Assembly: GCA_944349515.1 (NCBI GenBank)
Contig: CALVNE010000004.1
Span: 2,166 to 66,165 of the forward strand
Length of the DNA: 64,000 nt
DNA from: an uncultured Clostridia bacterium
Lineage (GTDB): Bacteria > Bacillota > Clostridia > Christensenellales > UBA1242
Direction of reading: 5' to 3'
Below are positions 11,762 to 42,064 of the stretch, in pieces (positions within the stretch are counted from its first letter, which is position 1; each line of letters starts with the position of its first letter). The notes beneath the pieces are model-generated. The model had not been told where the DNA came from and made no database searches. It saw only the letters and a program-made list of their open reading frames with translations. Position numbers and translations under genes: made by a program.

Positions 11762-11992
11762 ATGATAATAGAAAAAGTTAAAGAGTTGCTTGCAGAACAA
11801 CTTGGAATTGACGCCGGCACTATCGCTGACGAAGCCAATATTTTGGAGGATCTTGGGGCTGACTCGCTGGATATCATTGAAATGTTGATGACGCTTGAAG
11901 ACGAGTACGGCATAACAATCCCAGACGACAAAATCAATCAAGTTAAAACTGTTAAGCAAGTTGCAGAACTCATTGAAGAGTGCAAAAAGTAG
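11762..11992 (+). CDS. acpP: acyl carrier protein
   Basis: 76 aa. Has the phosphopantetheine-attachment motif LGADSLDIIEM. SD is GGAGG. Confidence 0.9.
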   Translation: MIIEKVKELLAEQLGIDAGTIADEANILEDLGADSLDIIEMLMTLEDEYGITIPDDKINQVKTVKQVAELIEECKK

Positions 11993-12309: not shown

Positions 12310-12690
12310 AAATTTTTCTCTCTAAAAACACCTTGAAATAATAAATAATTATTTCTCTAAAATGTGTCTTGTAAAAGTAAAAAAGAAAAATCAAAAAATA
12401 TTAAAAAAATAGCAAAAAAATCAATTTTTTTTTGAAAAAAATGCTATTTTTTTATTATTTTTTGATTTTTTTATATTTTTTAAATAAAAATTAGCCGTTT
12501 TTTATTTTAAATAAATTTAGCAATAATTAAACTTTGTGGACTATTTTTTTAATATTTTACTTTGCTTTTATATAAAAAATCTTAAAATAAAATTATTCTT
12601 AAAATTTTAAATTATTTTTTAGACAAATTTGTTTTAATATTTTCCAAAATAAAATGTTTAAAAATATTCGATAAAATTTATCAAATTATT

Positions 12691-12718
12691 TTGATTTGCG
12701 CCTTAAATGATATATAAT
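12691..12718 (+). promoter_or_regulatory. candidate sigma-A promoter of the giant gene
   Basis: TTGATT at 12691-12696, 16-nt spacer, TATAAT at 12713-12718, about 70 nt upstream of the ATG. The background is very AT-rich, so a chance match is possible. Confidence 0.35.
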
Positions 12719-12788
12719 ATATTATATATTTAAGCCTACTTGTTTAAATATTTATTTGCTTTATGCAAATATTATCTAAGGAGGAGTC

Positions 12789-12857
12789 ATGAAAAAAATT
12801 GCACCCATAATGCTTTGCGTGTTTATGATGTTTGGTGGAATTGTGCTATCCGCTTGT
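12789..12857 (+). other. lipoprotein signal peptide of the giant protein (cleavage before Cys23)
   Basis: MKKIAPIMLCVFMMFGGIVLSAC has a basic n-region, a hydrophobic core and an L-S-A-C lipobox. The Cys codon TGT is at 12855-12857. Confidence 0.75.
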
Positions 12858-15800
12858 TCGGGAAGCAATATCTCTTTGTCGCTCTCAACGAACTATGTGG
12901 AAATTTACACGAATGACGCCGACCGCGAAAATTACCAATCGGCAAATATCGAGGTTAGTTTAAATGGCTCCAATGACGGAATTGATGTTCAAGTTGAGTC
13001 TGGTGACGATGTTGTTACTATCGCCTCACGCGAAAACTCTTCTTCGTCGACCACTATCACCTTGAATGCCATTAAGTCTGGTGATGCAAGGGTGAAAGTT
13101 TATTCGCGAGAAAATAATGCGGTGTATGACTACCTCAATATTAAGGTCTACACCTTGCCAACCGCAACAAATATTATCGACCAAAATGACGATAACAACA
13201 GAACGAGTATGTTTGTGGTGAAGGACGGCGAAGGCGTGTCGCTTGAAGTTGATAAGTACATATCTTTTGAACCGGCCGATGTTAATGTTAAAGATATCTC
13301 ATGGTCTTTCAACTCTCAAAATGAGGAAATAAGCACAGTTTATGAACAGGATATGGGCGATGGCACAACAGAGACTTATGCCGAGATTGTTAACAACACC
13401 TTGAAAGTTTATGATGCTTGTAACGAACAAACTATAACTGTATACGCCATTGTGGAAACCGACCGCTCGCTCTCTAAGCCGCTTGTGTTTGAGGTGATTG
13501 AGTCTTCGTCGATTAACTATTATGAGATAGGCGGTCATGAGATAGACGATGCTGACGGCGAGGTGGAATTTGACCTTGTTAGAAACAACTCGAACACTGA
13601 CGCCTCAAGTGGTGTGGGTGTGTCGTCGATTTCCGGCGAAGTGTGCCTTACCACTTTCGACGAAAATATGACTTTAACGCCAAAGGCATATTTAAAAAAT
13701 AGTGGAGTGGAGGTTGAAGCGCGCGAATACTTTAAGTTTACCTACAACAGCGTTTACGACGATGTACGAGGAAGGTTGACTTTCTACTTCACTATTGACG
13801 CGCTATATGATGACTACACCATGGAAAAGCGCTTTGGCGAACTATACTTTGATTTGGTCTTTGAATACAGCGAGTATGTCTATTCGATAAGCGCGCGCGA
13901 AGAGCTTGTCGGTGAGCCGGTGCTCAACCTTTCCTTTGTTCCGGAAAGCATTGTGCTTCGTGACCAAAGTGGCAACGACATCGGCGGAAATCCTATTGAT
14001 TTATACTCGCAATACTATGGCTCTCAAGGCTATCTCGTGACCGGCTATGTCTACCCGGACGATGTGCCACTCAGTGACGATACATATCGAATCCAAATTG
14101 ATTTAAGTGAATATATAGGTCTTGCGGACTCTGACAGTGAGGGCTTTGTTGACCGCTTCCTTCAAGTTTCTGATAGGACAGGGCGTAAGATTGAACTTGA
14201 GCAAGTGGGTAACTCGCAAACTTACCTTTCCACATCAATCGCCAACGGCACTTCGGTTTACTTAAGAAGTGGAGATCTTGGAGGCAACCCTTCGATAAAT
14301 GGCTTTCCAATTTCCTTCCTTGCCAGCGTAAATTCTCATGTTGCCACCGAAAGTTTAACCGCCAACCTCTATTATATAACCACAGGCACAACAATGACTG
14401 TTGCTGAGGTAATTTACGACGAGGACGGCAACGAGTCTTTCGTGGATGACTACACCGCCGTAAAATATCTCTCTTCGGCGAGAAACAGCGCCGGCGTGGC
14501 GTCCACAAAGGAATATTTCTTTAGAATTTCCGGCATATCTTCTGCCGAGGGGCTTTCGCTAGATCGGGCGGAAAACCAAAACTTCACCATAACCATGGAC
14601 GAGTACGCGCGTTCCGCTGACGACGAGGAACAGTTTGTTATTGTTAGGGTGACGGTGACGCCGAATGGCACGAATTTCCGCGACCGTACCACTTTTAGAT
14701 TTTACCATAAGTCCGGCTTAACGTCGGATACGGTGACGCTAGAGACTTTTGTTCCGCTTGCGATAGCGTCGGTGCAAGATAACAATCAGGCCTCAAACAA
14801 CATCTTTGGCGAAACGACCGAGGAGCAAAACTATCTTTTAGTTGACGGAGAAATTGTTGCCGAGGGCGCGTCGTCAACAACCTTGTCTTCAATTCTGGCT
14901 TCGGCTGGGTCGAATGTTTCCATTTTACTAAATTATCAAAGCGCCACACTTAACACCGTGGCAAACACCGCGGGTTATCAATTCTTCTTCCTAAATTACG
15001 AACTTTTAGACATGGAAGAGGACGAATTTAAGAGTTTGAACGTTGCGGATATTTTGAATTATAACAACGCCTTCACCTCCGACGGCATCACCGACTATTT
15101 TACCTACAACAACGGCGTTTTGAGCCTAAATGACAGCGAGTTTGTGGTCTTTGTAAAGGTGGAATTCTATGGCTATGACTCTAATCACAACGATGTTACA
15201 TTGGTGAGGTTTTTCAAACTTGAAAGTTTTTATCCGGTGACCATTTTAAGAAGCAATGTCTCTGATGTCAATCTTCTCTCTCACCAAAGTTTGGCGGAGG
15301 GCGATGAAGAACTTTCGCAGGTTGATGTCACCTTAACGCTTAGAAGTGACAGTAAGGTGACAACATATGCTTCCGAAGATGAGCACCTTTCCTATTTCAA
15401 AATCATTTTAGGTGCAGAAACAAGTTATGTGGTGAACAACGACAACCTTGCAAACGGCACGCTTGAGGATGAGAATAACTCTTTTGAGAATATGCTATCT
15501 TTATATGATATTTCCTATATATATAACGATTATTTATACTTAACCAACTTTCGCCTTGTTGGTGGCAACACGTTTAGGTTTAATATACGAGCGGAGTCGA
15601 CCAATTTCCAAAACCATGTCAATGATGTTGTTATGATTGAATATAGTTACGGCAGTGTGACGTACAGAGAGTCGATAAATGTCAATATCACTCAAGTTAA
15701 TCGCGTGGAGGAGGTTTCATGGCTAAACGCCAATGCCGATTCCAGCATTTACCTCAATCTCGCAACCAATGATACCCTAGAGCAAAACTTCACAATTATC

Positions 15801-18800
15801 ACCTCGGTGGGCCCAAGCGATGCTTACAACACCTCGCTTTCGCACGTCTATCAGCCGATGGATAACAACGGAGATATCCTTCAAATAACCACATCTGAAG
15901 TCGGGCAGACCTTCACGCTGTCCATTAATAGCGCCACAAGAGGAGGCTGGGGCTATCTTTACCTATTGCCAGCGGACATGATTAAAGCACAAGGTGGAAC
16001 AAGAAGAGCGCTAGTGTATAGGCAAGATGATTTAGGCAATATGGTCAGCGAATTCCTTGCCCTTGATGATATCCACAGTTGGTATGACGCTGTTATTAAT
16101 GGCGAGGAAGGCTATTTAAACTATTTCCTCAACAACGACGATGAGAGAATCTATTATCGCGATATAATTGTGCAGATAAGAATAACTGTTGCTGACGGAA
16201 CGAGCGAAGAAACGGCAATTAGAATCTATGAGGAAGCGGATTTTGTGCAAGAGATACAAGAAAATCCTAGCCTCTTTTATCGCATAATGAACGATTTGAC
16301 GCTAGAAGACTATAAAGAAAATTTCAACTTTTCCGGCATGATTTTTGGCGATAACGAGAATGTTTCCATAAATCTTAACGGCATAAGTTTGATAGGTGAA
16401 CTTTCTGGCGTTGTGAAGGACCTAACAATCTATGGCTCTTCAACAAACGGTGCGTTTGTGGCAAGTAAAATTGGCGAAAGCGTGACAAATAACAACGTAA
16501 TAAGCGCCGGTTATCGTCTGCCAACCGTGGAAAATGTGATTATAGATGTGCGCTATGACGATGAGAGCAACAGATACGAGCCGAGCGCTTTAAGTGGCAG
16601 TAGGTCGGAGAGCGGTACTACATATGCCGGCGCCATTGCCTCAGTGAACGGCGGAATTATTTTAGACTCTTATGTTTACGGCGTTACTCTAAACACTACG
16701 GGCGTAGATTATGTTGGCGGGCTTGCCGGCTGGAGTTACGGCGAAATCAGCGGTTCTGGCGTGGAATTTTATCAATTTGCGGGCGACGATAACAACTATA
16801 CTAACACTTTTGCGGGTGGTACAATCGGCGGACTTGTGGGGCATTTGGGAAGTCAAGACTTCACATCTTCCGTAACAAATTCCTACGTCTACGCCTTCAA
16901 TCTTAATGCCGGCGTTGGCGCTAGTGGAATTTCCTCTTACACATCAAATATTTTAGGCGCGCAATGGTTCGGCGGGCTTGCTGGAAGTTCCGAAGGGACG
17001 GTAAACATTGATACCTCTTTCGCCTTTATGGGTGAGTACGCAAATTTAATCGGCAATCTAGGGACGGGGACGAACATTACAAATGCTTACATCACTTACT
17101 ATAGCATTAGCAACGGACTATATTACCCAAATTTCACATATTATAACGGGAACGGTGTTTTGAACACGGTTAGTTACAGCCAAATGAACACCATGCCTTG
17201 GACGGGGCTTGATAGCGCAATTTGGGAGTATGAAAATATTTCCAGCGAATACAACTTTGGTTATCCGTATTTTAAAGAGGTTAAACAAACAATGAGTGCC
17301 TCGGTTGAGCAAACAGTGCAGTTTGTTAGTGGCAAAAGTTTGCCTGTTGACGGTGGCGAAAATGGCATTTTGTTTAACTATAGCGTTCGCGAGAATGTGA
17401 CGGGCGACATTGCAAACGGCGAACTTGAGGCTTATAACACCATATCTTTAAAAGAGTTGTTTGGAGTGACAGAGGCAGAGTCGAGAAGTCTACTTTTGTC
17501 GGTGGATAACCCTCTTTACGCGCACTTTTCTAACTCCTCAATTACGACGCTTATGACCACCGATAACTATGCCGGCAGAGTTGTGGGCGTGACGCTGACC
17601 AGCCGAACAGATTTCAGTAACAGCAAAAAGTTTAACATTATGATAATCGACGCCATACCAGAATTTGTTGTGACCGCAAATGACGTCGTACTGAGAGATG
17701 AGCAAATTTTAAGCGTTCAAACGGGGGCTAGAAATGCCCAAAGCGTGAGTGTTATTGTCGACGATACAATTTACCTAAATGGCGAAAGTTACACCTTGAT
17801 TCTTGATGACTATGACTACTTTAATGAGTTCGATGAGACCAACCAATATGAGGGCGTGGAGAACTATTATTTTACCCATGAAACGCTGGGAAATGCCATT
17901 GAATATCAGGCGAATAATGCCTCGGAAAGCAATGTTAACGCCAATATTTATCTGGGCCTTACCAGCCTTGGCGCAAACTATGAAAGTTACAGTGAGGCGA
18001 TAAAGATAAACAACACAAGAAACCTTCTTCTTTACGCTTATGACGGCGCAAATTCGCTTTCAGTCAGTGCGGACTTGCTTAGTTTTAAACCGCTTGGCAC
18101 CACTTCCTTTACCGCCACAATAAACTCTGATAGAGTGGACGAAAAACTATTTATCGAGGTGGGATATGATGACGGAAATGACGAAGAGATCTATGATGTC
18201 ATCTATTCTGACGATATGAATGGCACGGTTAAGATAAATGACAATTTAGAAATTTACTTCTCTATGACGGAGGAGAAAAACGGTAACAATATCTTTGTAA
18301 ATACCCTTATCGGCGTGTCGCAAGATTATAGGCATAGGGTAGATAAAGACTATAATCTTACGCTTTACATTAGGCCGGACAGCAAGCGCACAAGCGATGA
18401 TCTTCTTTCCACCATTTCTCTCACCGTTCTAAAGCAATCCATTGAAGATTTTAATGTCACAAACTACTCCCTATTAAGTAAGCAACTTAGAAATTCAAGG
18501 TGGTATTATGTGCGTAGCGAAAATATCACCACAACAATCGCGCCGGGCACGGAAACGATCCTTATGGTCGACGTCAATCCAAATTATGCACATATGTCTA
18601 ACTTTACAGTGACATATACTCTCTCTAACCCTAGCGCTGGAACGGTGAGTTTGTCGCGCTTAATGTATAACAATAGTTATGGCTACTACGTTGACAGCAC
18701 AACCACCGAGGCGCTCAATGCCTATAACTCCACCTTGCGCGGACTTAATGTGACACCGACTGATGACGATTTAAGAAATGGAGTTTACTATTTTAGGCTA

Positions 18801-24800: not shown

Positions 24801-27800
24801 GTGGAAAGCACAAACAGTGAAAACGCTGTTACCATTTCAAATTATCTTAATTTAAGCACCTATACCATTGAAAACTGCGCAAATGCGACGGTGGGTGGTA
24901 TTGTCGGCGACGCCAGCACGGCAAGTTTCACTATCACTTCCTCCGGCTTTGGTGGAAAGGTATTACTGAGTAGTGTAAATAACAATCAAGACTTTGCTGT
25001 TGGTGGAATTATCGGCAGGGCGCAACAGTCAACCTCGCCAAGCACTTTAAGCAATATCTATTCCTTCGGCGATGTGTTTGTAAGTTACGCTAATAATGAC
25101 AATAGATTAAACACCTATTACTTTGGTGGCGCTGTTGGCTTCTATGAGGTGCAAGAGGGCTCAAATGTCAATTTGACCATTCGAAATTCCTATTCCTTGA
25201 TGTCATCGTTCAACGATAGGGTGACAAACGCCATCGCAAATTACGCCGTTAATGCCTTTGTTGGCTACGGCGCAGATTCGGTTACTTACAGCGGAAATTA
25301 CTATGCTTCCGGTGTCACCTTCGCCCTTCAAACGCAAAGCGGAAATAATGACACCTACTTCATCGCTCACAACGCAAGCGCACCAACTTATTATGGTTAC
25401 ACACTCAGTAACAACGAGGTGCAAGCGTCTAACACAAACATTGTTGCAAACATAAGAAATGGCATTTCTAATATTGTTGGTGGCACTAACGCACTGGACG
25501 ATATTAAAAAACTCAATCCAACCCTTCTTGAAGTGGGCGGAAATGGGGCGTTTACAGGGGTATTTGACAATAGCACAGCGCGCGATATAAATTGGTTCTA
25601 TGTTGGCAGTTCCTTGGGCGACAGCGATAACTATATCACTGCAAGAATAGCAACTTTGAATAATGCGGTCATCGTTGGAAACGGGCAAACTATCAACTTC
25701 CGCTCAAGCGAGGACGCCACCGAGGTTGGCGAAGAGGCGACGTCAGATTACGGCTTTATTGGCGAGATGTCAACACTGGGCAATTCTTTCTCGGCGGTGA
25801 CAAACTTAGTTGTTAATAACACTGTAAGCGTTGTTTCAAACAGCGGTATTGCTGTTGGCGGTATTGTTGGACACATGGGCGCTTCCAATGGAGGCACGTC
25901 CATTCTCTACGCTGTGGGCGTGAGTGGCGAGATAATCGTCGGCGGAACGGGCAACATCTACGTTGGAGGACTTGTTGGTAATATGCAAGGCGAAGGCATG
26001 ATAAACAACGCATACTTCGACGGCGATATCTATTATTCGGCAGGCGCTAACGGCACTGCAACTGGAATAGCATATAGCCAAAGTCACTTAGAAATTTTAA
26101 ACACATTCTCGGCTGGCTCAATTCAAACTCTGTCGAGTCTAGGATATGTAAGTTTGTTTAACGACTCTTCTGCATCCACTGTAACACGCATATTTGACTC
26201 CTACACAATCATGCAACACTTTGGGAACACCGACTATGACGCTGGAATTTATGAAGGCAATTTAGGCACATTCGTTGGCACGCAATCAAATTGCTTATCC
26301 GACTCCTCGGGTGTTTCGTACGCGACGCGCTCGGTTGGCTACGGCGGAGCAACTTACAGTAAAAATTCGCTTGTTGTCAGCGAGGACGACGCGGGAACAG
26401 CAAACAATAACAACGGCTATGTTGAGGTTGAAAATGGCACGCGCGATGTTTGGTTCTATTCGCCATACAAAAACTACGGCTACGGCACCACCGGCTTTGG
26501 ATTCCTTAGAAATGTCACCATTGCAACGCGCGAAAGTGTGCAGACTGGCGATTCCGAAACGGTCAACTATGAGTACACAAAGTATGCGATAAGTGATATT
26601 GCTAATATTGAAACAACCACCACCGACTTCTTCTATCCAATTCTAAACAGCGCACAATTTAATGCAATGATTACCTTGTCAGGAGCGGCGGATGTTGCCG
26701 AAAAGGATAGACAATATATGCTCCGTTACGATATCACGGCAAATTTAGATAGAGGCAGTAACTTCTCTAACCCTAGCGCGCCTTTCACTTTGGACGGCAG
26801 AAATAACACGCTAACGCTAAATTCCTCTTCTTCAAATATGAATGTCGCACTTTTCAATGTTATTTATGGCAATCTTGAAAACCTAAACTTTAAAGATGTA
26901 AAGGTTGAAAGCACAGACTCAAGTCTCAATTTAGAAAATGGCATGAGCGTTTATGGCACGCTGGCAAATGCCTCCTATAACGCGCGCATTGTGAATGTGA
27001 CCATGCAAGGAACACTGGCGGTTACCGATACTTATAAAATTGTTGGTGGCGTCATCGGCGTGGCTGTAAACTCTGAGATAAGAGCGGTGGAAAGTGTTGT
27101 CGACTTCGCACTAAATGCGGACAGTAGTAACAGCATTGTTGGCGGTGTTGTTGGCTATGCTATCGAAAATGGCGACGCACGAGAGGATATTGCAGTTGGC
27201 ATCTTCTATTCGTCAAATGCTGGGAATATCAGTATAGATGACCCTTATGCACGAAATGTTGGTGAAAATGAAAGTAGCACGGAGGAAGGCGGACAAGATT
27301 TAGTCTTTATAACCGCAAGTTTGAACGGCGATGCATTAACCCTTTCTTCAAAAGGTACTATAAGCGCGCACACAAGCAATGTGGGCAATGGCGGAACAAG
27401 TGATATGCAATTAGATTCCAACCTTTCCAGCATAATTGGCGGAATTGCCGGTGTCAGCGAGGTGAATATCGACCACTCATACAACTCGGCAACTCTTATA
27501 AATGGATACAGACAATTTACAAGTGAGGAACAACATAAAATCGGAGCAGTTTCCGCGGGCGGAATTGCGGGATACTCCACGGCGGATATCTCCAACTCTT
27601 TCAACGCTGGCTATGTTGTTGCGGGAAATATGTATAACTACTACGAAACGGTTGAAAGCGCAAACGTGGAAAGAAAATATGGCTACGTGGCACTTGCGGG
27701 CGGAATTGCAGGCTACACCACAGGTTCGATAGGCGCGAACGGCACAAGTTACAACGACGGCAAAGTGCAATCGGTGAGTTATTTTGATTCCAAAGTGCCG

Positions 27801-30800
27801 GCGGGAAATGACGGCTCAGAATACCAAATTGAACTTTCCAGCGTTACATGGGAAATGAACAACACGGGTTGGGACGGAACCGTGGATGGCACGGGTAAAA
27901 CTATCAACGAAACACTAAACGATTTGGAAGATTATATCAATAATGCTCTTTACCCGGGACAGGGTGATGCATATGACGGAAGTATGTATAATAGAAAAGA
28001 CACTTCCATTTCACTTACCTTCAACTTTAAGATAAAAATGAACACCATAAACACAGCAAGGCTGACGCATGCTTATGCACTCGGCTATCAAGGCGCAGAG
28101 AGCGAAATGAACGGTGCGAATGGTCAGTATGCCGAAATTGTCAATGACGGCTGTATTGGTCTTATAGAAAAAGACGTATCGTTCAACGAAACCATTCAAC
28201 GCTACGGCGGAGTGACACTTTCCTATCCATATATCTATGACTGGGTGGAATTTGCCGAAGTTGACGAAAATTTCGTGGCAAGTTATAGCCAAGAAGGAAA
28301 CGGCGAATCCTCTTCGGAAAGCATGAACATGATAAGCGCTTACGATTCCTACGGCTTCCCAAGCAGACTCAATGTTTATTATAAGTATTCGTTTGATATG
28401 AATGTTCTTAGCGCAAACCGATCAAGGAATTATCATAGTTTATGGCGTTTGGCTGGCTCATTAAATGCGCCGACGAATAGATATAAGTTCACTGTTACTG
28501 ACAAACCTTACGACAAAACTCACACCGTTTCTGCGGAAGGAGAAGTTATAAGCCTTGATTTATCCGTTCAAAATGCGCAAGGGGTATTGCCGGGCGGTGA
28601 AACTGAACACTACTTCTCAATGCCGTTCTATCAAGGTAGTGGCGCAACCGGTTATGACGGCAGTTCCTATGAAGAATATATGTATCGCCTAAACAACACT
28701 TTGAGTTTGTATAATAACTACACAACAGCCAGCATGGGCACGGACATCTCGCAAGACTTAGAAAGGTTGTACGGCGAGATTAAAACATATGTTTCAAACA
28801 ACACGCCGGAAAAGAAATTTAATATACGTGGCAACACTTTCAGCATGGTATATAGTGGTGACCAACTCTCTGCTTACACCAAAGGCGTTTCCTTCACGGG
28901 GCAGATAGAGATAGGCAACGCGCCAACTCTATCGCGCGACGGTGAGGAACTTTCTAGCACAAGCGCGGGAATTAGAGTGAAAGATATGACCTTTGACATC
29001 TATAACGGCGCTACGCAAGTTGCTTTAAGTCCACTAAGTTACACGGCATATATCAGCGAAAACACAATTTACTACACTGTTTACTACGATAAAGACGCGT
29101 TGTCGGAAAATTTTGGCGGTGAAGACCTTGATTTAAGCGGTTTGAGTATAGACGCGGGCTACACACTTGAATACACCTTCCGCGACAGCCTCACGCTGAC
29201 AAAGAACAATGTCATTCAAGACGAGGAAATTGTCATCTTCAAAATTATGGACGAAGATACTCTTACCGCGATAAGTTTTGAGGAGTATTTCGCCGAACTA
29301 GACAGCATTCAAACCAGCGAACTGCCTGTGGAATTTGAGGGAATTGATGACGAAGTTATTGCACCGCTTTTAGGTGATGACGGAAATTATCGCATAACTT
29401 ATGGCAACTTGCCTAATTCAACTGGCGAAAAAGAGGCGTATTTCAGTTTCAACTCCGTGGCAGATGCTGATGCCTTTGTTGGTGCGCTTGATGAAAGCGG
29501 AACGGTGAATATGTACTTCTATTATCAAACTTATGGCTCTGGCGAGTATGAGGACGAAAATATCGTCACTCATGTTGGCGCTCTTAGCGACATTTCGCAA
29601 GACTATATATTTGGCATAGGCGAATTTGGTGATGCCGGAACAGTGTTAACTAACACTGCGGGCGTTTCGCTTGATGAAACGGCGGGTTCGTCGATTATGA
29701 GGTTGATGTTCCCTAACAATTCCGACCTTGGTGCGATTAAAGTGGAATTTGAGAATGGCAATATCTACTTCTATCCTCAGACCTCTGACGAAGATAAATT
29801 CAGTTACTATATCGACACCTACGGCACTGGGATTGAGGTCAGCGCTGTATCAAATGGCACCAACTTCTATATCAACCTAGATTTTAGCATGGAGACCAAC
29901 AGCGGGCTATATTCCGCATGGCAGAGTATGCTATCAAGCGCCACAGTTTCCACAGCAGAAGCGGTTACGGACAATAACACAGTGACAGTGCCAAACAGGA
30001 TAAGTCAAACATTGAATGGTGTCAACGTCACCTATATTTTGGACCGCTCTAATACAACCGATTTCACCTACCAAGATGTTGGAAACAGCGTGGAAGTTAC
30101 AAGAACGGGCTCTCAAGCCGTATTCACGGCAAACTATAACTACGCGGGGGCCTCTGTTGGCGGGGTTGGTAATGTGCAGTTTGTAACAATTAGTGACAAC
30201 CTCTACTATGTCAACAGCGACTACGTCCTTCGCGTTGGTGAGAACGGGCAAGTGTCTGGCATTCGAGATAATAAGGGCGCAACTTACGAGTTTACAAGCG
30301 GCAACACCGACACTGTGTATGGCTTACTCACCGCTGGCACTTCTTACACGCTGACCACAATTGAATATAGCAATGCAACGCTAAACATCTATCGTCATGC
30401 TGGCGGTGAGATTAGGGTTTATGAGTTTAGCGGCTCAGCGTACATTGTTGACGGCGCAGATAGGTACGTTTATGTTAATGACACTTTAACAAGCGTAACA
30501 GCAATAGATGAGGACTACTTCTTTGTGGCAAACAATGGCGCGCTTAGAAACTTCACTTTAACCGACATTGTTCTAAGCGACGACGATTATTACCTTGTTT
30601 ACAGCGGTGGGCTTTTCGTTGGTAATTTTGGCGCGTACTCATATGATCCAAACAGCAACACGGCAACTTACGGTGGTGCAAATGTTGAATCCATGATTTA
30701 CCGACTTAACCTGTCAGATTTAACTGGCACCTTTGATATCACAACAGAAACCGGCAACGAAACAGCAAATTATTCGGGCGGATATAACGGCTGGTTTGAA

Positions 30801-33197
30801 AGCGATTACGAGTTCTACTTTGTGGCAACAAGTGTGGTGGACACATCATATGACGCCTCAGACCTCTTCCGCACACAAGTTATCACTTTCGACGAAAGTG
30901 GACTTCAAGTGTTGATTGACGATAATGCTTACAACTCTTTACAAATCAAACAGTATAACCGCACGCTCTCTGACCCTGAGAGGTTGCAACTATTCCACGG
31001 CACAACCGAAATTGACTACGACCCTTCCGGTGACGCCGTGTGGGATACTTCAAATTCTAGTTCGTTGTTCGCCTTCGATTCCTTCTTCATTGCCTCCCTT
31101 AGCGACGAGTTAACCGACGGCGTTAGCAGTGTGGCTTTTGGAGCGCACACCGGCGAGGTGGTGTTCAAAGCGGACGTTACAAGCGAAAATAGTCACACCT
31201 TAACTTTAAGCGAAGAAGAGGCGACAGAGAAAGAAAACGAAATTTTAAGATTCACAAATGCACACAATATCATCTTAGGCGACAATGTTTACTATGAGGG
31301 CAACATGATTTTGAATGGCACACAACTCTACGGCAACAGTTATGTTATCAACGTCTTTGGCAATATGAACGCGTGGAAAAATATGATTGAAGTCAACGCA
31401 ACGGCAGACAGTCAAGGACTTATCACAGACACTTCCTTTGCCTTTGCGGTGGACTTGACAAGTTACGCTTATCGTGGCGAAGGGGTGACCGAGGATAACG
31501 ATCATTACGACAGCGCACTTATCTATGTTGGCGCAGAAAATAATGGCGGAATGCTTAGTAACATTAAATTATACGGGTCACTTAGAAATGTAAGTTCCGA
31601 CACCACCGACGAGTTTGGCAACGTTGATTGGAGGACCAGAAATGCTGATGGGCGGGCTTACATAGATTCTTCATATACAGAAGCGGAAGTGTTATTAAGA
31701 AAAATTTCCCTTCTTTCGTCAAATCTAACTGAAGATAGTTCTAATCTTCAAAATATCACATCAGCAATGACCATTCAAGGCAAAAGCGCAAAGGCGAATG
31801 ACCGTATTGTTGCCAGAATGACGGTATCTTCTGGTGATGATTTTGGATATAACCAATACAACGTTAAAGACGGCGCGAACGTCAATGTTGTTTTAAGCGT
31901 CGGCGAACAGGTCAGCGCAAACAAAACCTATGTTGTGCTGGGCGACGGTGCCAATGGCGCCAATGGCGCAGAGGGTAGCTCTACGGGTGCCAATGGTGGT
32001 AACGGCGGTAAGGCAGGTATTGTTGATAGCACGGGGAAAGATGACAAAACTAACGAAGAAAATGGCGCAACAGTATTTTATGGCATCGACGGCTTGGGTG
32101 GTAACGGAGGAAACGGTGCGGACGGCAAAAATGCTTCCTACTATTATGTAAACATCATTATACCACGAATAGATGCTAGCACAGGTGGCGGAGGCGGTGG
32201 CGCCTACGGACTTGACGGCAATGTTTACAAGCTGACGAACGCAGACGGCACATATACTTTAACTTATAATGGCACAATTGAAACGACGGTGTTATCTAAT
32301 AGGCGTCAAGCAAGAGATTCAAAAAATATCGACGGCACTCAAATATCCGCACTTGCCGGCAACGGCGGAACAGGTGGACTTGGACTTATCTATATCGGCG
32401 GTGTTAGTGATGATAATGTTTATGACGCCTTCAATAGAGATCGAGGGTCCTTAGGTCCGACTTATCCAAACGAATACGCAACCTCATGGTATATCACCGC
32501 TGCCGGCGGTGGCGCTGCGGGAAGAAGAGATAACTATCAAGGTGCTGGCGGAAGGCGTCATGTTGGTGAAACCGGCGAAAGTGGAATGGCTGGGTATGAG
32601 ATTGGAACTAAAGGCAGTAGTAGTTTTGAACGTGGCAGTTTTACTCATGGTGAAGTAAATGAATATTCATATATATACACAAGTCAAGCAAAATCAAGTT
32701 ATTATTTTGCAAACCATCATGGAGATTATCCAAATGAATTCTTATTTGGAAATCTGCAATATATTCCTGCCTTCTCACATTGGTACATTACTCCTGCATC
32801 ATATGGGCATGATAATGTGAATATCATAGTAAGACCTCCTGATGGTTATAATGATGATAGATATGGAGGGGTCTTGCTTGGGCGTGAAAATTCAACATAT
32901 GATGATGTTTCCACACTTACTGGATACTTTAACTACTTCCTAGCCGACAAAACTAGTATTTGGAAAGATATCTATTATGGTGGTGCCGGAGGATACTTTA
33001 CGACAAGTATTAATCCGAATGGTGTTTATCCGGAAATGTATGGTGGGACTCCATATACCAAAGAAATTTTGGGATATGTATTGTTTGAAGACGAAATTGC
33101 AAGTTATTCCGGTTACGGACAGTACTTCTTCACTAGAAATGATATGGTGACAAGTGGTGGCTCGTTCGGTATGGCGCAAGGGGTGTATATCAAATAG
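12789..33197 (+). CDS. giant (6,802 aa) surface lipoprotein with Ig-like repeats, five GLUG-type beta-helix blocks and a glycine-rich C-terminal region
   Basis: Single uninterrupted ORF of 20,409 nt. SD AAGGAGG at 12778-12784. Lipobox LSAC. 22 G-G-[LIVA]-[AVI]-G pentapeptides are readable in the translation. No LPXTG, HEXXH or C-terminal TM. Confidence 0.9.
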   Translation: MKKIAPIMLCVFMMFGGIVLSACSGSNISLSLSTNYVEIYTNDADRENYQSANIEVSLNGSNDGIDVQVESGDDVVTIASRENSSSSTTITLNAIKSGDARVKVYSRENNAVYDYLNIKVYTLPTATNIIDQNDDNNRTSMFVVKDGEGVSLEVDKYISFEPADVNVKDISWSFNSQNEEISTVYEQDMGDGTTETYAEIVNNTLKVYDACNEQTITVYAIVETDRSLSKPLVFEVIESSSINYYEIGGHEIDDADGEVEFDLVRNNSNTDASSGVGVSSISGEVCLTTFDENMTLTPKAYLKNSGVEVEAREYFKFTYNSVYDDVRGRLTFYFTIDALYDDYTMEKRFGELYFDLVFEYSEYVYSISAREELVGEPVLNLSFVPESIVLRDQSGNDIGGNPIDLYSQYYGSQGYLVTGYVYPDDVPLSDDTYRIQIDLSEYIGLADSDSEGFVDRFLQVSDRTGRKIELEQVGNSQTYLSTSIANGTSVYLRSGDLGGNPSINGFPISFLASVNSHVATESLTANLYYITTGTTMTVAEVIYDEDGNESFVDDYTAVKYLSSARNSAGVASTKEYFFRISGISSAEGLSLDRAENQNFTITMDEYARSADDEEQFVIVRVTVTPNGTNFRDRTTFRFYHKSGLTSDTVTLETFVPLAIASVQDNNQASNNIFGETTEEQNYLLVDGEIVAEGASSTTLSSILASAGSNVSILLNYQSATLNTVANTAGYQFFFLNYELLDMEEDEFKSLNVADILNYNNAFTSDGITDYFTYNNGVLSLNDSEFVVFVKVEFYGYDSNHNDVTLVRFFKLESFYPVTILRSNVSDVNLLSHQSLAEGDEELSQVDVTLTLRSDSKVTTYASEDEHLSYFKIILGAETSYVVNNDNLANGTLEDENNSFENMLSLYDISYIYNDYLYLTNFRLVGGNTFRFNIRAESTNFQNHVNDVVMIEYSYGSVTYRESINVNITQVNRVEEVSWLNANADSSIYLNLATNDTLEQNFTIITSVGPSDAYNTSLSHVYQPMDNNGDILQITTSEVGQTFTLSINSATRGGWGYLYLLPADMIKAQGGTRRALVYRQDDLGNMVSEFLALDDIHSWYDAVINGEEGYLNYFLNNDDERIYYRDIIVQIRITVADGTSEETAIRIYEEADFVQEIQENPSLFYRIMNDLTLEDYKENFNFSGMIFGDNENVSINLNGISLIGELSGVVKDLTIYGSSTNGAFVASKIGESVTNNNVISAGYRLPTVENVIIDVRYDDESNRYEPSALSGSRSESGTTYAGAIASVNGGIILDSYVYGVTLNTTGVDYVGGLAGWSYGEISGSGVEFYQFAGDDNNYTNTFAGGTIGGLVGHLGSQDFTSSVTNSYVYAFNLNAGVGASGISSYTSNILGAQWFGGLAGSSEGTVNIDTSFAFMGEYANLIGNLGTGTNITNAYITYYSISNGLYYPNFTYYNGNGVLNTVSYSQMNTMPWTGLDSAIWEYENISSEYNFGYPYFKEVKQTMSASVEQTVQFVSGKSLPVDGGENGILFNYSVRENVTGDIANGELEAYNTISLKELFGVTEAESRSLLLSVDNPLYAHFSNSSITTLMTTDNYAGRVVGVTLTSRTDFSNSKKFNIMIIDAIPEFVVTANDVVLRDEQILSVQTGARNAQSVSVIVDDTIYLNGESYTLILDDYDYFNEFDETNQYEGVENYYFTHETLGNAIEYQANNASESNVNANIYLGLTSLGANYESYSEAIKINNTRNLLLYAYDGANSLSVSADLLSFKPLGTTSFTATINSDRVDEKLFIEVGYDDGNDEEIYDVIYSDDMNGTVKINDNLEIYFSMTEEKNGNNIFVNTLIGVSQDYRHRVDKDYNLTLYIRPDSKRTSDDLLSTISLTVLKQSIEDFNVTNYSLLSKQLRNSRWYYVRSENITTTIAPGTETILMVDVNPNYAHMSNFTVTYTLSNPSAGTVSLSRLMYNNSYGYYVDSTTTEALNAYNSTLRGLNVTPTDDDLRNGVYYFRLYISSSFTANSLINLTFTFYDGEEVLKSETVPYTIDYIQEAVVLVNGETSIMLARGDSASVSVEVNIDQTLDSIYLSGHGAYITMTNITETIYPTYKLYTASINTSVLSTLASGEETGSFTVEASVVSYINGRPSYKYSYATISLVDFVVNTSETSLSTSGSTSIYGGVEYDTFNSYMNASNELSFNYSVSPSSYTYNTVEEEIAVNELLQKQRSFQSTGYYADAENGYYINYETNPISGAIEKVSLKERLYYANSDGTYTAVYNSQQNRFLENSTFDFVGGDEGNSITIRGKQSGSVLLRLETIIMVGNNIQRFNYDFVVRITIWTDEEVPIPIYTAEEFLRYLNGNPDSEGNTDSGDYILMNDIILDSYVPQSTQYFDSLDGNGYTIYLNSFTFDNASTTLNLALFSEVTSNSTIKNVRVNLYNAGQITVNIQQYDYINIAGFTLLNNGIIYNCDVVSFYDVNNSSYRVGGNNGIVVSFVRGNGGQAVDLTSGDIRPENINIAGFALDNNSIITNSRVGGETYKCIREEFDERYYDEMSLSLFTIQGQGYVSGFVGENSGTISASFASNMAISNSMQTTLSETAGFVLENLGTINTSYVRGQYSTADDDEYYYDGSTISTTGNVGGFSYYNNGTIKNSYVNFAIEIEQSRSYMSAGFVYRNGSEGIVTLCYAQVKMSSSSINDMSFSGVTEGGVSLNENDDGISYCYYFSDERDIDIQGEYEGIGAYAISTVDDESVYYRFSFASEQNAVDGIWTMLGEGRGITLASADHIAFSNRYIVYDEENEEEYALFYSTLRDYTTRLQVDLSYGSLNNPIIIRSAEDFARATGRATSEEISSYQNYYNDYEVFGNYRFVNDIDFSTIDQNLDDNKAVRLTTTTKEFSGIIDGNGFTISNIVLESSGTLENYGLFASINNGTIMNLGLEVASVHNGTASIVGTLAGTAIDSRLIGLSLSLAGSRDDEDALVAISIHGNNIVGGVVGAVFGNSKLSDILIEDIDVAANYYDEYKTVTNNNYNPNSTLVGESLKKIVEAGGSLSSAVSNLSYAGGLAGYVDIYEDIDEENVTFSGSVDYSTYDLLTIRISNSINIYGEVAGGLVGYLSGTTTAYDMGLELNADMALSTPSYITAKNLYAGGIVGESYGGLFACYAEYTRELQDTIEESMYRYYNSSANVERGQMSIFSFTESETGVGITSRYNDPYFVGGLVGYAGGGFISTSYNRLNVVSNTSHKRDYQAYFGGLVGCVDSDDYFSSQILNTRGQVSYSLNETYFSGVLNSTTAASMGGAVGLITSDSIVEMRRVNSIPYYDSNSDRSKIFGLIGGFETNVNTDGGLSLTRPSHLYLMDNANGYYDIITNTRLSGNTYETTTTSIAVSAEYLAQNDVLENDATRYNYIFSYRDSLIETFNPDISDAATDIDSAQIMQVEWIRNLSTMESAYTRMNQYFLRNDWEPDYWQHEVGTLYPRIVLTPRTNTVYLDAYEESIREVLDIINENSSYTVIVRGLIDPENPSLGYTDVDLRPYLDASTTARNFSGRFVSYEEYMNSNTEGLVTAGKEVFDGPYIIGGTAGENVGIILDQPIFETVDYGFEMGNLNIYYTNSGNVSTTSYTSLLVARTATNGYFHELDIHLNNPLTLQADSYGMAGLLTAESISTDFVDINIIFRRANLNDNSVDLTFIDSDAERLNGGSQYFGILSGRMLQNSVYKAMTISNINFAVEQKRTSSQQSGGGTATQNSNINFNFVKQTDNSYDLYFGLLSGDSSVEAGSNPSRFRMTSLNRYQGNNYNINITFTKNDSLSGDQNINNAYIGSYFGRANFGYIEGVLGDDNYPLNNITISQNLPVTTEYIGLGFGRLVGNGSMNITKDSDAVVNFVAKGSVVQEGTVETAYIGGLIGQAEMNLSIDSNIETGLSLAGAENITSSANIGSIIGVLNGTFSAKSFSTENSLTVNTLGGVDINYGLIGVLSGRASVEMGVDTDADAMLSRDDITILNTTGNVNIGGVVGKVESTNSENAVTISNYLNLSTYTIENCANATVGGIVGDASTASFTITSSGFGGKVLLSSVNNNQDFAVGGIIGRAQQSTSPSTLSNIYSFGDVFVSYANNDNRLNTYYFGGAVGFYEVQEGSNVNLTIRNSYSLMSSFNDRVTNAIANYAVNAFVGYGADSVTYSGNYYASGVTFALQTQSGNNDTYFIAHNASAPTYYGYTLSNNEVQASNTNIVANIRNGISNIVGGTNALDDIKKLNPTLLEVGGNGAFTGVFDNSTARDINWFYVGSSLGDSDNYITARIATLNNAVIVGNGQTINFRSSEDATEVGEEATSDYGFIGEMSTLGNSFSAVTNLVVNNTVSVVSNSGIAVGGIVGHMGASNGGTSILYAVGVSGEIIVGGTGNIYVGGLVGNMQGEGMINNAYFDGDIYYSAGANGTATGIAYSQSHLEILNTFSAGSIQTLSSLGYVSLFNDSSASTVTRIFDSYTIMQHFGNTDYDAGIYEGNLGTFVGTQSNCLSDSSGVSYATRSVGYGGATYSKNSLVVSEDDAGTANNNNGYVEVENGTRDVWFYSPYKNYGYGTTGFGFLRNVTIATRESVQTGDSETVNYEYTKYAISDIANIETTTTDFFYPILNSAQFNAMITLSGAADVAEKDRQYMLRYDITANLDRGSNFSNPSAPFTLDGRNNTLTLNSSSSNMNVALFNVIYGNLENLNFKDVKVESTDSSLNLENGMSVYGTLANASYNARIVNVTMQGTLAVTDTYKIVGGVIGVAVNSEIRAVESVVDFALNADSSNSIVGGVVGYAIENGDAREDIAVGIFYSSNAGNISIDDPYARNVGENESSTEEGGQDLVFITASLNGDALTLSSKGTISAHTSNVGNGGTSDMQLDSNLSSIIGGIAGVSEVNIDHSYNSATLINGYRQFTSEEQHKIGAVSAGGIAGYSTADISNSFNAGYVVAGNMYNYYETVESANVERKYGYVALAGGIAGYTTGSIGANGTSYNDGKVQSVSYFDSKVPAGNDGSEYQIELSSVTWEMNNTGWDGTVDGTGKTINETLNDLEDYINNALYPGQGDAYDGSMYNRKDTSISLTFNFKIKMNTINTARLTHAYALGYQGAESEMNGANGQYAEIVNDGCIGLIEKDVSFNETIQRYGGVTLSYPYIYDWVEFAEVDENFVASYSQEGNGESSSESMNMISAYDSYGFPSRLNVYYKYSFDMNVLSANRSRNYHSLWRLAGSLNAPTNRYKFTVTDKPYDKTHTVSAEGEVISLDLSVQNAQGVLPGGETEHYFSMPFYQGSGATGYDGSSYEEYMYRLNNTLSLYNNYTTASMGTDISQDLERLYGEIKTYVSNNTPEKKFNIRGNTFSMVYSGDQLSAYTKGVSFTGQIEIGNAPTLSRDGEELSSTSAGIRVKDMTFDIYNGATQVALSPLSYTAYISENTIYYTVYYDKDALSENFGGEDLDLSGLSIDAGYTLEYTFRDSLTLTKNNVIQDEEIVIFKIMDEDTLTAISFEEYFAELDSIQTSELPVEFEGIDDEVIAPLLGDDGNYRITYGNLPNSTGEKEAYFSFNSVADADAFVGALDESGTVNMYFYYQTYGSGEYEDENIVTHVGALSDISQDYIFGIGEFGDAGTVLTNTAGVSLDETAGSSIMRLMFPNNSDLGAIKVEFENGNIYFYPQTSDEDKFSYYIDTYGTGIEVSAVSNGTNFYINLDFSMETNSGLYSAWQSMLSSATVSTAEAVTDNNTVTVPNRISQTLNGVNVTYILDRSNTTDFTYQDVGNSVEVTRTGSQAVFTANYNYAGASVGGVGNVQFVTISDNLYYVNSDYVLRVGENGQVSGIRDNKGATYEFTSGNTDTVYGLLTAGTSYTLTTIEYSNATLNIYRHAGGEIRVYEFSGSAYIVDGADRYVYVNDTLTSVTAIDEDYFFVANNGALRNFTLTDIVLSDDDYYLVYSGGLFVGNFGAYSYDPNSNTATYGGANVESMIYRLNLSDLTGTFDITTETGNETANYSGGYNGWFESDYEFYFVATSVVDTSYDASDLFRTQVITFDESGLQVLIDDNAYNSLQIKQYNRTLSDPERLQLFHGTTEIDYDPSGDAVWDTSNSSSLFAFDSFFIASLSDELTDGVSSVAFGAHTGEVVFKADVTSENSHTLTLSEEEATEKENEILRFTNAHNIILGDNVYYEGNMILNGTQLYGNSYVINVFGNMNAWKNMIEVNATADSQGLITDTSFAFAVDLTSYAYRGEGVTEDNDHYDSALIYVGAENNGGMLSNIKLYGSLRNVSSDTTDEFGNVDWRTRNADGRAYIDSSYTEAEVLLRKISLLSSNLTEDSSNLQNITSAMTIQGKSAKANDRIVARMTVSSGDDFGYNQYNVKDGANVNVVLSVGEQVSANKTYVVLGDGANGANGAEGSSTGANGGNGGKAGIVDSTGKDDKTNEENGATVFYGIDGLGGNGGNGADGKNASYYYVNIIIPRIDASTGGGGGGAYGLDGNVYKLTNADGTYTLTYNGTIETTVLSNRRQARDSKNIDGTQISALAGNGGTGGLGLIYIGGVSDDNVYDAFNRDRGSLGPTYPNEYATSWYITAAGGGAAGRRDNYQGAGGRRHVGETGESGMAGYEIGTKGSSSFERGSFTHGEVNEYSYIYTSQAKSSYYFANHHGDYPNEFLFGNLQYIPAFSHWYITPASYGHDNVNIIVRPPDGYNDDRYGGVLLGRENSTYDDVSTLTGYFNYFLADKTSIWKDIYYGGAGGYFTTSINPNGVYPEMYGGTPYTKEILGYVLFEDEIASYSGYGQYFFTRNDMVTSGGSFGMAQGVYIK
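16200..17110 (+). other. GLUG-type beta-helix block 1 of the giant protein (approximate bounds)
   Basis: Starter IRIYEEADFVQEIQENPSLFYRIMNDLTLE, then VGGLAGW, IGGLVGH and FGGLAGS motifs with NSYVY/TSFAF-type rungs. Confidence 0.6.
19780..20890 (+). other. beta-helix block 2 (AGF-variant motifs; approximate bounds)
   Basis: Starter IPIYTAEEFLRYLNG...GDYILMNDIILD...LDGNGYTI, then IAGFTLLNNGIIYNC, IAGFALDNNSIITNS, VSGFVGENSGTIS, TAGFVLENLGTIN, VGGFSYYNNGTIKNS and SAGFVYRNGSEG. Confidence 0.55.
21240..22780 (+). other. GLUG-type beta-helix block 3 (approximate bounds)
   Basis: Starter IIIRSAEDFARATG...GNYRFVNDIDFS...IDGNGFTISN, then GGVVGA, GGLAGY, GGLVGY (twice), GGIVGE, GGLVGC and GGAVGL. Confidence 0.6.
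23200..26130 (+). other. GLUG-type beta-helix block 4 (approximate bounds)
   Basis: Contains GGLIGQ, GGVVGK, GGIVGD, GGIIGR, GGAVGF, GGIVGH and GGLVGN, spaced by NSY/SFG-type rungs. Confidence 0.5.
26627..27775 (+). other. GLUG-type beta-helix block 5 (approximate bounds)
   Basis: Starter YPILNSAQFNAMITLSG...RQYMLRYDITANLD...LDGRNNTLTLN, then GGVIGV, GGVVGY, GGIAGV and GGIAGY (twice). Confidence 0.55.
31929..32600 (+). other. glycine-rich tract of the giant protein
   Basis: Contains GDGANGANGAEGSSTGANGGNGGKAG, GLGGNGGNGADG, STGGGGGGAYGLDG, AGNGGTGGLG, AAGGGAAG and GAGGRRHVGETGESGMAG. Confidence 0.7.
32580..33197 (+). other. aromatic-rich C-terminal module with different base/codon composition
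   Basis: About 205 residues rich in Tyr/Phe/His/Trp/Gly (YYFANHHGDYPNEFLFGNLQYIPAFSHWYITPASYGH...). Visibly more AT-rich. I count only 3 GGC among roughly 27 Gly codons here, whereas GGC dominates upstream. Confidence 0.5.
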
Positions 33198-33415: not shown

Positions 33416-34168
33416 ATGAAAAACGACGATATTTCGCATGACGGGCATAGGGCGCGCCTCTTGGACCTTGCGTGCAATGCCGGGCTTGACAGCATGAGCG
33501 ACGTTCAAGTTGTGGAATTTCTTTTGACCTACATCTTTCCACGTGGCGATGTCAACCCGCTGGCGCACCGACTACTTGACACCTATGGCGACATAACTCA
33601 CATAATCAACGCGAATGTTGCTGAACTTATGACGGTGAAGGGCTTAAACGAACGCTCGGCGAAGAAACTTTCTAAGTTTGGCGATTTGTTCTTCGCCTAC
33701 ATCACCGCGCGCATGAATAAAAAATTCCACGCCGCTTGCGAAGGAGAAATTATCGACGCCGTGGAAGATTTATTGCGATTCCGTAACGACGAATTTATGC
33801 TACTGCTTGGCTTTTCGCCCAAAAATTACCTCTGCGGTAAGAAAATGGTGACCCGCAATTCCAAAAACGAGGTGGGCATGAATGTTATGGAATTGACCGC
33901 CTTTCTTTCCTCCGTTAAACCGCACGCGCTGGCAGTTGCCCATTGCCACCCCTATGGGATAAGCGACCCAAGCAAAGACGATGTGCAAACGCTGGCAAAA
34001 GTCAAAAAAATTTGTTACGATTGTGGCGTTCGACTGATTGATTCCTACATCGTCGGCGAGGACGGCGTGTTTAGCCAAACAAGAGGTTTTAAGGTGAGAA
34101 AATACACCGACGTAGACGACCTTAGAAAAGCCTTTGAAACTTTAAGCGAAAACAAAGACGAAGAATAA
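33416..34168 (+). CDS. radC: RadC-like JAB/MPN-domain protein
   Basis: 250 aa. SD is AGGAGG. HhH-like segment (VKGLNERSAKKL) and the JAMM-type motif HCHPYGISDPSKDD. Confidence 0.8.
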   Translation: MKNDDISHDGHRARLLDLACNAGLDSMSDVQVVEFLLTYIFPRGDVNPLAHRLLDTYGDITHIINANVAELMTVKGLNERSAKKLSKFGDLFFAYITARMNKKFHAACEGEIIDAVEDLLRFRNDEFMLLLGFSPKNYLCGKKMVTRNSKNEVGMNVMELTAFLSSVKPHALAVAHCHPYGISDPSKDDVQTLAKVKKICYDCGVRLIDSYIVGEDGVFSQTRGFKVRKYTDVDDLRKAFETLSENKDEE

Positions 34169-42060: not shown

Positions 42061-42064
42061 TTTA

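Follow-up and report, generated by a model that had tools for sequence, protein, structure and literature searches.

The subject of this report is a giant gene at positions 12789..33197 (forward strand, as for all features of the gene given below) of a 64,000-nucleotide stretch of contig CALVNE010000004.1 from an uncultured Clostridia bacterium; the whole stretch is referred to here as the window. The gene is a single open reading frame (ORF) of 6,802 codons followed by TAG, with 0 internal stops in both the ORF listing and the translation, and its predicted product has a mass of 742 kDa and a pI of 4.2. We conclude that it is a genuine giant lipoprotein gene and that it is of the same kind as the known giant fibrillar surface proteins, with three distinguishing features: a predicted N-terminal lipid anchor, a sequence almost without recognisable domains, and a new, rare and polymorphic tip on a glycine scaffold. 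On balance the product is probably a lipid-anchored giant fibre on the cell surface of an uncultured Clostridia lineage, with a fast-evolving, polymorphic and putatively binding tip. Giant surface proteins are probably major determinants of the attachment of uncultured gut-type Clostridia to hosts, particles and microbes, and almost all of them are unannotated; the gene described here is a clean case, being single-copy, syntenic, full-length and represented in many independent assemblies, with separable anchor, stalk and tip.

Across 12789-33197 the longest ORF in the other frames is at most 161 aa, so the 6,802-codon open frame is not a product of chance. A Shine-Dalgarno sequence, AAGGAGG (12778..12784), precedes the ATG by 4 nt. 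Public collections (NCBI, ENA) include a protein identical to this one, and its 90%-identity cluster contains at least nine full-length versions of 6,799-6,802 aa, assembled independently in different ENA/Logan contigs and 96-100% identical over almost the whole length. A second species (the P0006 group) contributes 10 versions of 6,750-6,762 aa, and there are two more distant orthologues of 7,336 and 7,375 aa. Aligned over their full length, the orthologues remain collinear with the protein all the way from signal peptide to final motif, at identities of 57% (P0006) and 37% (P0041, P0042), and the frame stays open over thousands of codons in five related metagenome loci. The sequence-only reading had described one uninterrupted 6,802-codon gene behind a strong Shine-Dalgarno sequence, and both parts of that description hold; no frameshift or stop splits the ORF in the at least nine independent assemblies, and the full-length homologues that exist include none with a known function.

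Neither tandem DNA repeats in the ORF nor BLAST-level internal repeats in the protein were found, so assembly collapse has nothing to act on; because of this, and because of the nine or more independent contigs and the collinear full-length orthologues, collapse and chimerism are excluded without long reads. Comparison with a 97-99% identical strain gives a ratio of nonsynonymous to synonymous substitution rates (dN/dS) of 0.16 over residues 2830-5062, and of 0.05-0.23 in most 150-codon windows; for residues 5801-6802 the ratio was taken from a codon alignment, since indels invalidate an ungapped comparison there. Purifying selection on the giant gene is evident from these estimates. The view that the gene comes from faulty assembly or a chimeric contig, or is a pseudogene in decay, is effectively refuted: it could draw on the many database entries that are fragments and on an in-frame TAA at a sister-species locus sequenced at 5x coverage (L001), but the fragments correspond to 100-N scaffold gaps, the TAA replaces a tyrosine kept in 10 other strains, and the independent full-length assemblies, the absence of collapsible repeats and the purifying selection all argue against it.

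Three apparent irregularities were rejected. The short homologue ‘proteins’ do not have their true lengths, being fragments made by 100-N scaffold gaps; a seeming indel of 84 residues that separates the window from locus L002 at residues 5063-5180 is likewise a 100-N scaffold gap; and the two-gene split in L001 is a single TAT-to-TAA change in a 5x-coverage contig rather than a feature of the lineage. The TAA in question (L001:6591-6593) divides the sister-species orthologue into pieces of >2,196 aa and 828 aa, and at its position the Tyr codon is intact in the 10 other strains (…NTATYRGAVV…); it reflects either an error in sequencing or a nonsense mutation at strain level.

The gene itself is ordinary in kind; what is worth following is its tip module, with the population genetics of that module. 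The module is preceded by a neck (residues ~6151-6370; 31239..31898) that starts with a motif resembling a beta-helix cap (NIILGDNVYYEGN...YGN.YVINVFG); the neck also takes in the strain-variable cassette's upstream edge, and within-species identity falls there. A glycine-rich subdomain follows (residues ~6371-6610; 31899..32618) with invariant period-3 Gly motifs, the blocks of invariant residues being GDGANGANGAxG, NGGNGGKAG, GGNGGNGADG, GGGGGGAYGLD, LSNRR, GxGGxGGLGxIY and AAGGGxAG, and the protein ends with an aromatic-rich terminal subdomain (residues ~6611-6802; 32619..33194) in which EFLFGNLQxIP, HW, WKxIxYGGxGG, GGTPYTxEIxG and FFxRNDMVTSxGxxG are invariant. Both sets of motifs are kept in all homologues. 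A glycine-rich tract followed by an aromatic-rich terminal module had been noticed from the translation alone, and the composition agrees: Gly makes up 23% of residues 6401-6600, and F, W and Y together 20% of residues 6601-6800. The protein has five G..G..G..G runs and every one falls within residues 6387-6593, against 0.57 expected. These runs are 3-4 triplets long and are not collagen-like tracts; as a sequence pattern they fit helices of the polyglycine II (PGII) type.

For database searches a profile was built from the last ~520 residues, aligned across six lineages. Exhaustive HMMER searching among 1.84 billion representative proteins returned 16 proteins at E<=1e-3, all of which seem to belong to this one giant family, as fragments or at full length; a word-indexed search gave no new homologues, and the exhaustive one added a few. 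No Pfam domain was found in the seven most distant of the matches. Against all PDB sequences at E<=10 the profile gives nothing significant and no gp38 chain, and the module has no match in 50,697 phage genomes (tblastn) or in an IMG/VR scan of viral contigs. The best PDB matches of the Gly-rich region are to the glycine-rich N-domain of Obg/MTG2 (E 4-8, non-significant), and matches of the terminal profile to BurrH, mini-G and Obg were rejected as low-complexity or non-significant. A scan of genome contigs with back-translated Gly patterns, which are too generic for this purpose, gave one distant locus (L006) among the matches listed. Judged by these profile searches, the terminal ~520 aa are a new, very rare conserved domain family.

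The giant protein diverges much more quickly than the proteins encoded around it (38-57% against 90-99% identity). Between the window species and two sister species DnaE is 99%, PHP 92% and WhiA 90-91% identical, and the giant protein 52% and 38%; the best-conserved part between species is residues 1900-3300 and the least conserved residues 5000-6400. RadC (33416-34168), encoded just downstream, shows 71-72% identity across sister species (the window against L001, L003 and L005) and, within a species, 96% at the DNA level; set against the 90-99% of PHP, WhiA and DnaE, this means that the raised species-level divergence reaches one gene past the giant ORF.

Within the P0006 species, ten strains are 96-100% identical except in the last ~550 residues, where the alleles are ~50% identical. 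The alleles are mosaics: P0034 matches P0006 up to SALAGSGGTGGLGLIYY and P0033 thereafter, P0035 shows the reverse, and the breakpoints fall at invariant Gly motifs. The same boundary is seen in DNA: between L001 and L003 identity is 94% across 7.6 kb of the giant gene, drops to 72-75% (or no alignment is possible) across its last 1.5 kb, and is back to 96% in radC. The terminal cassette is sharply bounded and exchangeable, with invariant glycine motifs at its internal junctions. When the window is set against L002, a strain of the same species, the number of synonymous substitutions per site is 0.19-0.26 at residues ~5781-6230 and ~0.04 elsewhere, which suggests an imported recombinant segment (30189-31988, residues 5801-6400) just upstream of the terminal module. 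The pattern of evolution as a whole points to the tip as the specificity end, and we infer that the role of this polymorphic module is binding.

The modules of the more distant lineages P0041, P0042 and L006 contain in addition a strongly hydrophobic Gly/Ala-rich insertion of 36-43 residues with Kyte-Doolittle values of 2.1-2.4 (P0041 residues 7068-7103; P0042 residues 7129-7171; L006:11765-11893, corresponding to residues 3921-3963 of the ORF from base 5). It sits between the LFGNLQ...FSYYG and NFYGGxGxGDGTG motifs, is absent from the window protein and from P0006, and might serve as a further membrane anchor or as a hairpin that inserts into membranes.

A strain-variable C-terminus on a long filament also recalls the contact-dependent polymorphic toxins, in which a beta-helical filament of the CdiA/FHA type would deliver a variable C-terminal module that damages the membranes of neighbouring cells. 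The sharply bounded allelic replacement and the beta-helix stalk are shared with such systems, and the sister-lineage segment resembles membrane-inserting hairpins; this last is the sole observation that sustains the toxin interpretation, and the window protein has no such insertion. Where an immunity gene would be expected, radC directly follows both tip alleles (L001 and L003), as it does in all lineages. The alleles are moreover homologous to one another (~50% identity) with every conserved motif kept, rather than unrelated toxin folds, and Pfam and NCBIfam give no pre-toxin, two-partner secretion (TPS), LXG, Rhs/YD, VENN, PT-TG or known toxin domain, so that the delivery domains and pre-toxin motifs of CdiA/FHA and the polymorphic toxins are missing together with the downstream immunity gene. 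The predicted lipid anchor, with no visible release site, is a further difficulty, and we regard a toxin as quite unlikely.

Phage receptor-binding adhesins offer a closer comparison for a binding tip. Dunne and colleagues reportedly described in 2018 a PGII-sandwich structure for gp38. The gp38 proteins of T2/T6-type phages have conserved Gly-rich motifs and hypervariable segments, with recombination within the motifs (PMC3157838). The giant protein resembles them in organisation only, namely in the position at the end of a fibre, the strictly conserved Gly-rich motifs between variable segments and the mosaic junctions within those motifs. It differs from gp38 of the T2/T6/S16 type in that the module is longer (~520 against ~120 residues), has a sizeable aromatic subdomain, and is part of a cellular lipoprotein; by analogy the tip may be said to work like gp38, and it is not a member of the gp38 family.

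A bolder and distinctly more doubtful proposal takes this analogy further. The tip could be a new cellular receptor-binding domain on a PGII-type scaffold, whose Gly motifs would serve both as the core and as the recombination junctions that shuffle variable cassettes between strains, a counterpart of the gp38 design reached by convergence or by very remote descent, carried on a 742-kDa lipid-anchored beta-helix fibre; the module of the sister lineages would add a membrane-active hairpin. If the PGII fold is true, a rare fold and the phage-adhesin strategy of a conserved scaffold with swappable loops would extend to cellular proteins, and there would be a handle for finding the ligand; if it is not, this is an ordinary though very large adhesin-like protein.

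More than 70% of the giant protein is without a match to any Pfam, NCBIfam, PHROG or PDB sequence. Pfam and NCBIfam searches with the two protein halves gave nothing above threshold and no Glug at E<=0.01, PHROGs gave nothing relevant, and phmmer against all PDB sequences gave nothing. In a Pfam search at E<=5 with ten overlapping 740-residue segments, Glug (PF07581) matches appear in four of the ten, at 9.1-18.3 bits and all below the gathering cut-off of 20.5. GG[LIV][VIA]G rungs cluster at residues 1310-1395, 2981-3286, 3890-4393 and 4753-4971, and in a scan of the protein against itself with hidden Markov models (HMMs) the blocks are weakly related (E 1e-5 to 1e-2).

These observations outline a stalk with at least five beta-helix blocks. 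Block 1 (residues ~1141-1500; 16209..17288) has GGxxG motifs at 1310-1395 and a sub-threshold Glug at 1343-1367, and is weakly HMM-related to block 4. A beta-rich spacer (residues ~1501-2335; 17289..19793) with no Pfam, NCBIfam or PDB match but collinear with P0006 (49-74% identity) leads to block 2 (residues ~2336-2800; 19794..21188), which is confidently modelled and, at 69-83% identity to P0006, among the best-conserved parts of the protein. Block 3 (residues ~2801-3470; 21189..23198; GGxxG motifs at 2981-3286, sub-threshold Glug at 3205-3219) is related to blocks 4 and 5 in the internal scan, and confident and poor segments alternate in its model. Block 4, possibly two blocks (residues ~3471-4600; 23199..26588), has GGxxG motifs at 3890-4393 and the best Glug match (residues 4388-4414, 18.3 bits against the cut-off of 20.5), and block 5 (residues ~4601-5000; 26589..27788; GGxxG motifs at 4753-4971, sub-threshold Glug at 4919-4941) is HMM-related to block 3 at E 8e-6. 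The distal region that follows (residues ~5001-6150; 27789..31238) is the least conserved between species, with 17-58% identity to orthologues; its residues 5000-6150 have no Pfam or PHROG match, and the orthologue profile gives 0 PDB matches at E<=10.

The fold of one block could be modelled. A homology search with residues 2330-3329 returned 11 proteins, all of them unannotated fragments and three named ‘hypothetical protein [Clostridia bacterium]’, and AlphaFold2 on this 11-protein alignment gave a mean predicted local distance difference test score (pLDDT) of 64.5 and a predicted template modelling score (pTM) of 0.60. Residues 2339-2709 (10-380 of the model) are mostly at pLDDT 70-95 and show the pattern of a solenoid, with short strand, turn and short strand. 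The leading Foldseek matches of the modelled block in the PDB are all right-handed parallel beta-helices, including GH55 glucanases (E 2e-4), the Streptococcus pneumoniae IgA1 protease 6xja (prob 1.00, root-mean-square deviation 6.6 over 440 columns) and the putative IgA1 protease BACOVA_03286 (3n6z, prob 0.99); further beta-helix matches are to pectate lyases, HxuA, Ag43, pertactin and tailspikes. As modelled, residues 2339-2709 form a right-handed parallel beta-helix as in the GLUG-containing IgA1 protease domain, and the other modules of the stalk probably share this fold.

The GLUG beta-helix domains (PF07581; 6xja, 3n6z) are thus matched in the fold of the modelled block and in the recurrence of the GG[LIV][VIA]G rungs. 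A cap motif of the type PIxIxTAEEF is typical of GLUG-type domains, and by eye one can be recognised at the starts of the blocks (PIxIxTAEEF...YxLxNDIxL...FxGxxDGNGxTI). The differences are that the Glug scores stay below the cut-off (at best 18.3 against 20.5 bits), that neither a protease domain (HEXXH) nor any other catalytic domain is attached, and that at least five such modules are strung in one chain. Five GLUG-type beta-helix blocks had been proposed in the sequence-only reading: the type stands at the level of fold, through the AlphaFold2 model, the Foldseek matches and the sub-threshold Glug matches in four blocks, and fails as Pfam membership, the best score being 18.3 bits against 20.5. 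With one module modelled, the stalk probably holds at least five ancient and strongly diverged GLUG-like beta-helix modules between beta-rich stretches.

The appearance of Ag43 among these matches bears on another possible role, in which the protein would serve self-recognition and cohesion through homophilic, allele-specific aggregation (kin recognition of the Ag43 type) or would be a structural fibre or coat of the envelope. Self-associating beta-helix autotransporters (Ag43 and 4kh3) are indeed among the Foldseek matches, polymorphic tips would also be expected under kin discrimination, the protein is very acidic and very long, and the gene is a single-copy, core-locus gene in every lineage sampled. 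The Ag43-type matches are, however, weak (E 0.09-0.25, prob <= 0.15), and what they show is the beta-helix fold in general; homophilic aggregation is, by the computation used, indistinguishable from heterophilic adhesion. We consider this role unlikely.

At its other end the protein begins with a type II (lipoprotein) signal peptide (residues 1-23; 12789..12857) composed of an n-region with K2 and K3, a hydrophobic core and a lipobox. The N-terminus reads MKKIAPIMLCVFMMFGGIVLSAC followed by SGS, with the lipobox L-S-A-C at Cys23; the hydrophobic stretch after K2 and K3 is IAPIMLCVFMMFGGIVL, and the Kyte-Doolittle 19-residue mean for residues 1-26 is 2.3. P0006, P0041 and P0042 have an identical LSAC box, which is thereby kept in all four orthologue groups, that of the window protein included. 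Motif and hydropathy scans of the giant protein found no LP.T[GASN] (LPXTG) match anywhere, no C-terminal hydrophobic segment of the kind a sortase anchor has, no HEXXH, and no membrane-type hydrophobic segment past residues 1-26. The lipobox is therefore, as had been proposed from the translation together with the absence of LPXTG, C-terminal transmembrane helix and HEXXH, the only visible anchor, lipidation being predicted from sequence.

The region after the signal (residues 24-1140; 12858..16208) is beta-rich and probably spans the cell wall or forms the proximal stalk. Its first ~100 residues are weakly Ig-like, with a match to Ig_NUP210_15th at E 5e-4, below the cut-off, in all four orthologues, and a weak Ig_NUP210 match at residues 73-120 of the window protein in the segment scan (E<=5). 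The orthologue profile of residues 24-1140 has 0 PDB matches at E<=10. Ig-like repeats of the Big_2 type had been proposed here, and by eye the first one or two domains are Big_2-like, without profile support; Big_2 never matched, neither in the ten segments of the window protein at E<=5 nor at E<=1 in the first 1,100 residues of the four orthologues, and the label is therefore unsupported.

The fibre interpretation can be put as a sequence of steps. Sec export with the type II signal peptide would be followed by lipidation at Cys23 and retention in the outer leaflet of the cytoplasmic membrane, a step that we propose because the lipobox is conserved. About 6,000 acidic, beta-rich residues would then form a long stalk in which right-handed beta-helix modules of the GLUG/IgA1-protease type, diverged and at least five in number, are interspersed with Ig-like or unassigned stretches. 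This stalk would project the C-terminal module of ~520 residues away from the cell, the C-terminus being the distal end because the anchor is the N-terminal lipobox. Extended beta-helix and Ig-like modules would make the fibre some 100-250 nm long, a figure estimated rather than computed. The terminal module would be the working end, with the invariant period-3 Gly scaffold and the aromatic subdomain carrying variable segments, and recombination at the Gly motifs, seen between strains of the sister species, would swap these segments and so change binding specificity or antigenicity.

Several observations weigh against this interpretation. For a monoderm cell, an N-terminal lipid anchor is an unusual means of holding a 742-kDa fibre. 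Nine strains of the window's own species hardly differ over the last ~400 residues, their variation lying at residues 5800-6400 instead, so that strong polymorphism of the tip is documented in the sister species only. AlphaFold2 on the terminal 802 residues (6 sequences) gave a pLDDT of 27.5, an unusable model that establishes no fold, and the PDB profile search, the phage tblastn search and PHROGs detected no sequence similarity of the module to gp38, to any adhesin domain or to the glycine-rich domain of ALK. Finally, the hydrophobic insertion is not explained by a pure binding head.

The Gram-positive giant fibrillar adhesins, such as Ebh of Staphylococcus aureus and those of the SasG/Aap type, are very large proteins with an acidic, beta-rich modular stalk and a distal functional region. 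The giant protein resembles them in size, in its acidic beta-rich modular stalk, in fast evolution, and in its presumed surface location and distal projection. It lacks their LPXTG and C-terminal transmembrane helix, having the N-terminal lipobox anchor instead; its stalk is not made of near-identical tandem repeats, and no usual adhesin Pfam domain was detected in it. The sequence-only reading had found no described adhesin family to fit the combination, and this remains the case. That reading had also called proteins of this size rare in Bacillota. The size is unusual but not unprecedented, nor indeed exceptional, because proteins 10,000-30,000 aa long are described for Clostridia from mammalian gut metagenomes, with arrays of RCC1, Listeria-Bacteroides repeat, YG repeat, dockerin and leucine-rich repeat units (bioRxiv 10.1101/2023.11.21.568195). 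They too are giants of uncultured Clostridia, are predicted to lie on the surface and are presumed to bind; the giant protein differs from them in having almost no recognisable domain and no recent internal repeats.

Directly upstream of the giant gene lies spoIIID (Pfam E 1.6e-29), as had been noted before, and a gene for an M23 peptidase and one for a SpoIIT-like protein precede it. Downstream are the genes for RadC, a PHP phosphoesterase, WhiA, DnaE and PFK, with radC immediately 3’ of the giant gene in all lineages sampled. The spacer between spoIIID and the giant gene (12310-12788) is 479 bp long with a G+C content of 14.8%, against a window mean of 41%. A sigma-70-like (sigma-A-like) hexamer pair, TTGATT-16-TATAAT (12691..12718), is a candidate for the gene's own promoter. 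Six promoter-type sites were found in the spacer against 7.3 expected in shuffles, and the pair is statistically indistinguishable from chance in such AT-rich DNA; a terminator scan of the spacer likewise gave sites no more often than chance. The spacer also has many A and T homopolymers, besides three short and imperfect tandem repeats (12373-12419, 12446-12481 and 12649-12690). Rfam found nothing in the whole window.

This neighbourhood raises the idea of a sporulation-linked surface structure, such as a spore-surface filament with short collagen-like G-x-x runs, which would fit the position directly downstream of spoIIID, the M23 (SpoIIQ-like) peptidase gene and the SpoIIT-like gene as well as the short period-3 Gly runs. 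It is very improbable. The 479-bp, 15% GC spacer separates the giant gene from spoIIID, the sole promoter-like match near the start is sigma-A-like, and the downstream genes (radC, PHP, whiA, dnaE and pfk) are housekeeping genes; the Gly runs, at 3-4 triplets, are not collagen-like, and a lipoprotein signal implies membrane anchoring rather than deposition in a spore coat. The sporulation context that had been pointed out is thus real as a neighbourhood, with synteny conserved on the radC side, yet nothing ties the giant gene to sporulation functionally, the spacer included, whose sigma-A-like pair is at chance level.

Other genes in the window deserve brief mention. A second predicted lipoprotein of 670 aa (5763-7775, forward strand) starts MKKKVFSLLLCLVMCVSVLTGC and has no Pfam match; it is kept in the same lineage, with 28 members in its 90% cluster. 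Between the M23 peptidase gene and spoIIID there is a gene for a 76-aa acyl carrier protein (11762-11992, forward strand), recognised by its DSL motif and by the PP-binding assignment in the precomputed annotation of locus L007, and this is an unusual location for such a gene. Right after pfk, at ~41750-43385 (L007:38964-40409), two small genes of the Xre-type helix-turn-helix (HTH) class lie on opposite strands and are followed by a gene for a 324-aa HTH_17-Fic/DOC protein; the Xre pair and the Fic/DOC gene may be a toxin-antitoxin system or a mobile insertion within an otherwise core region.

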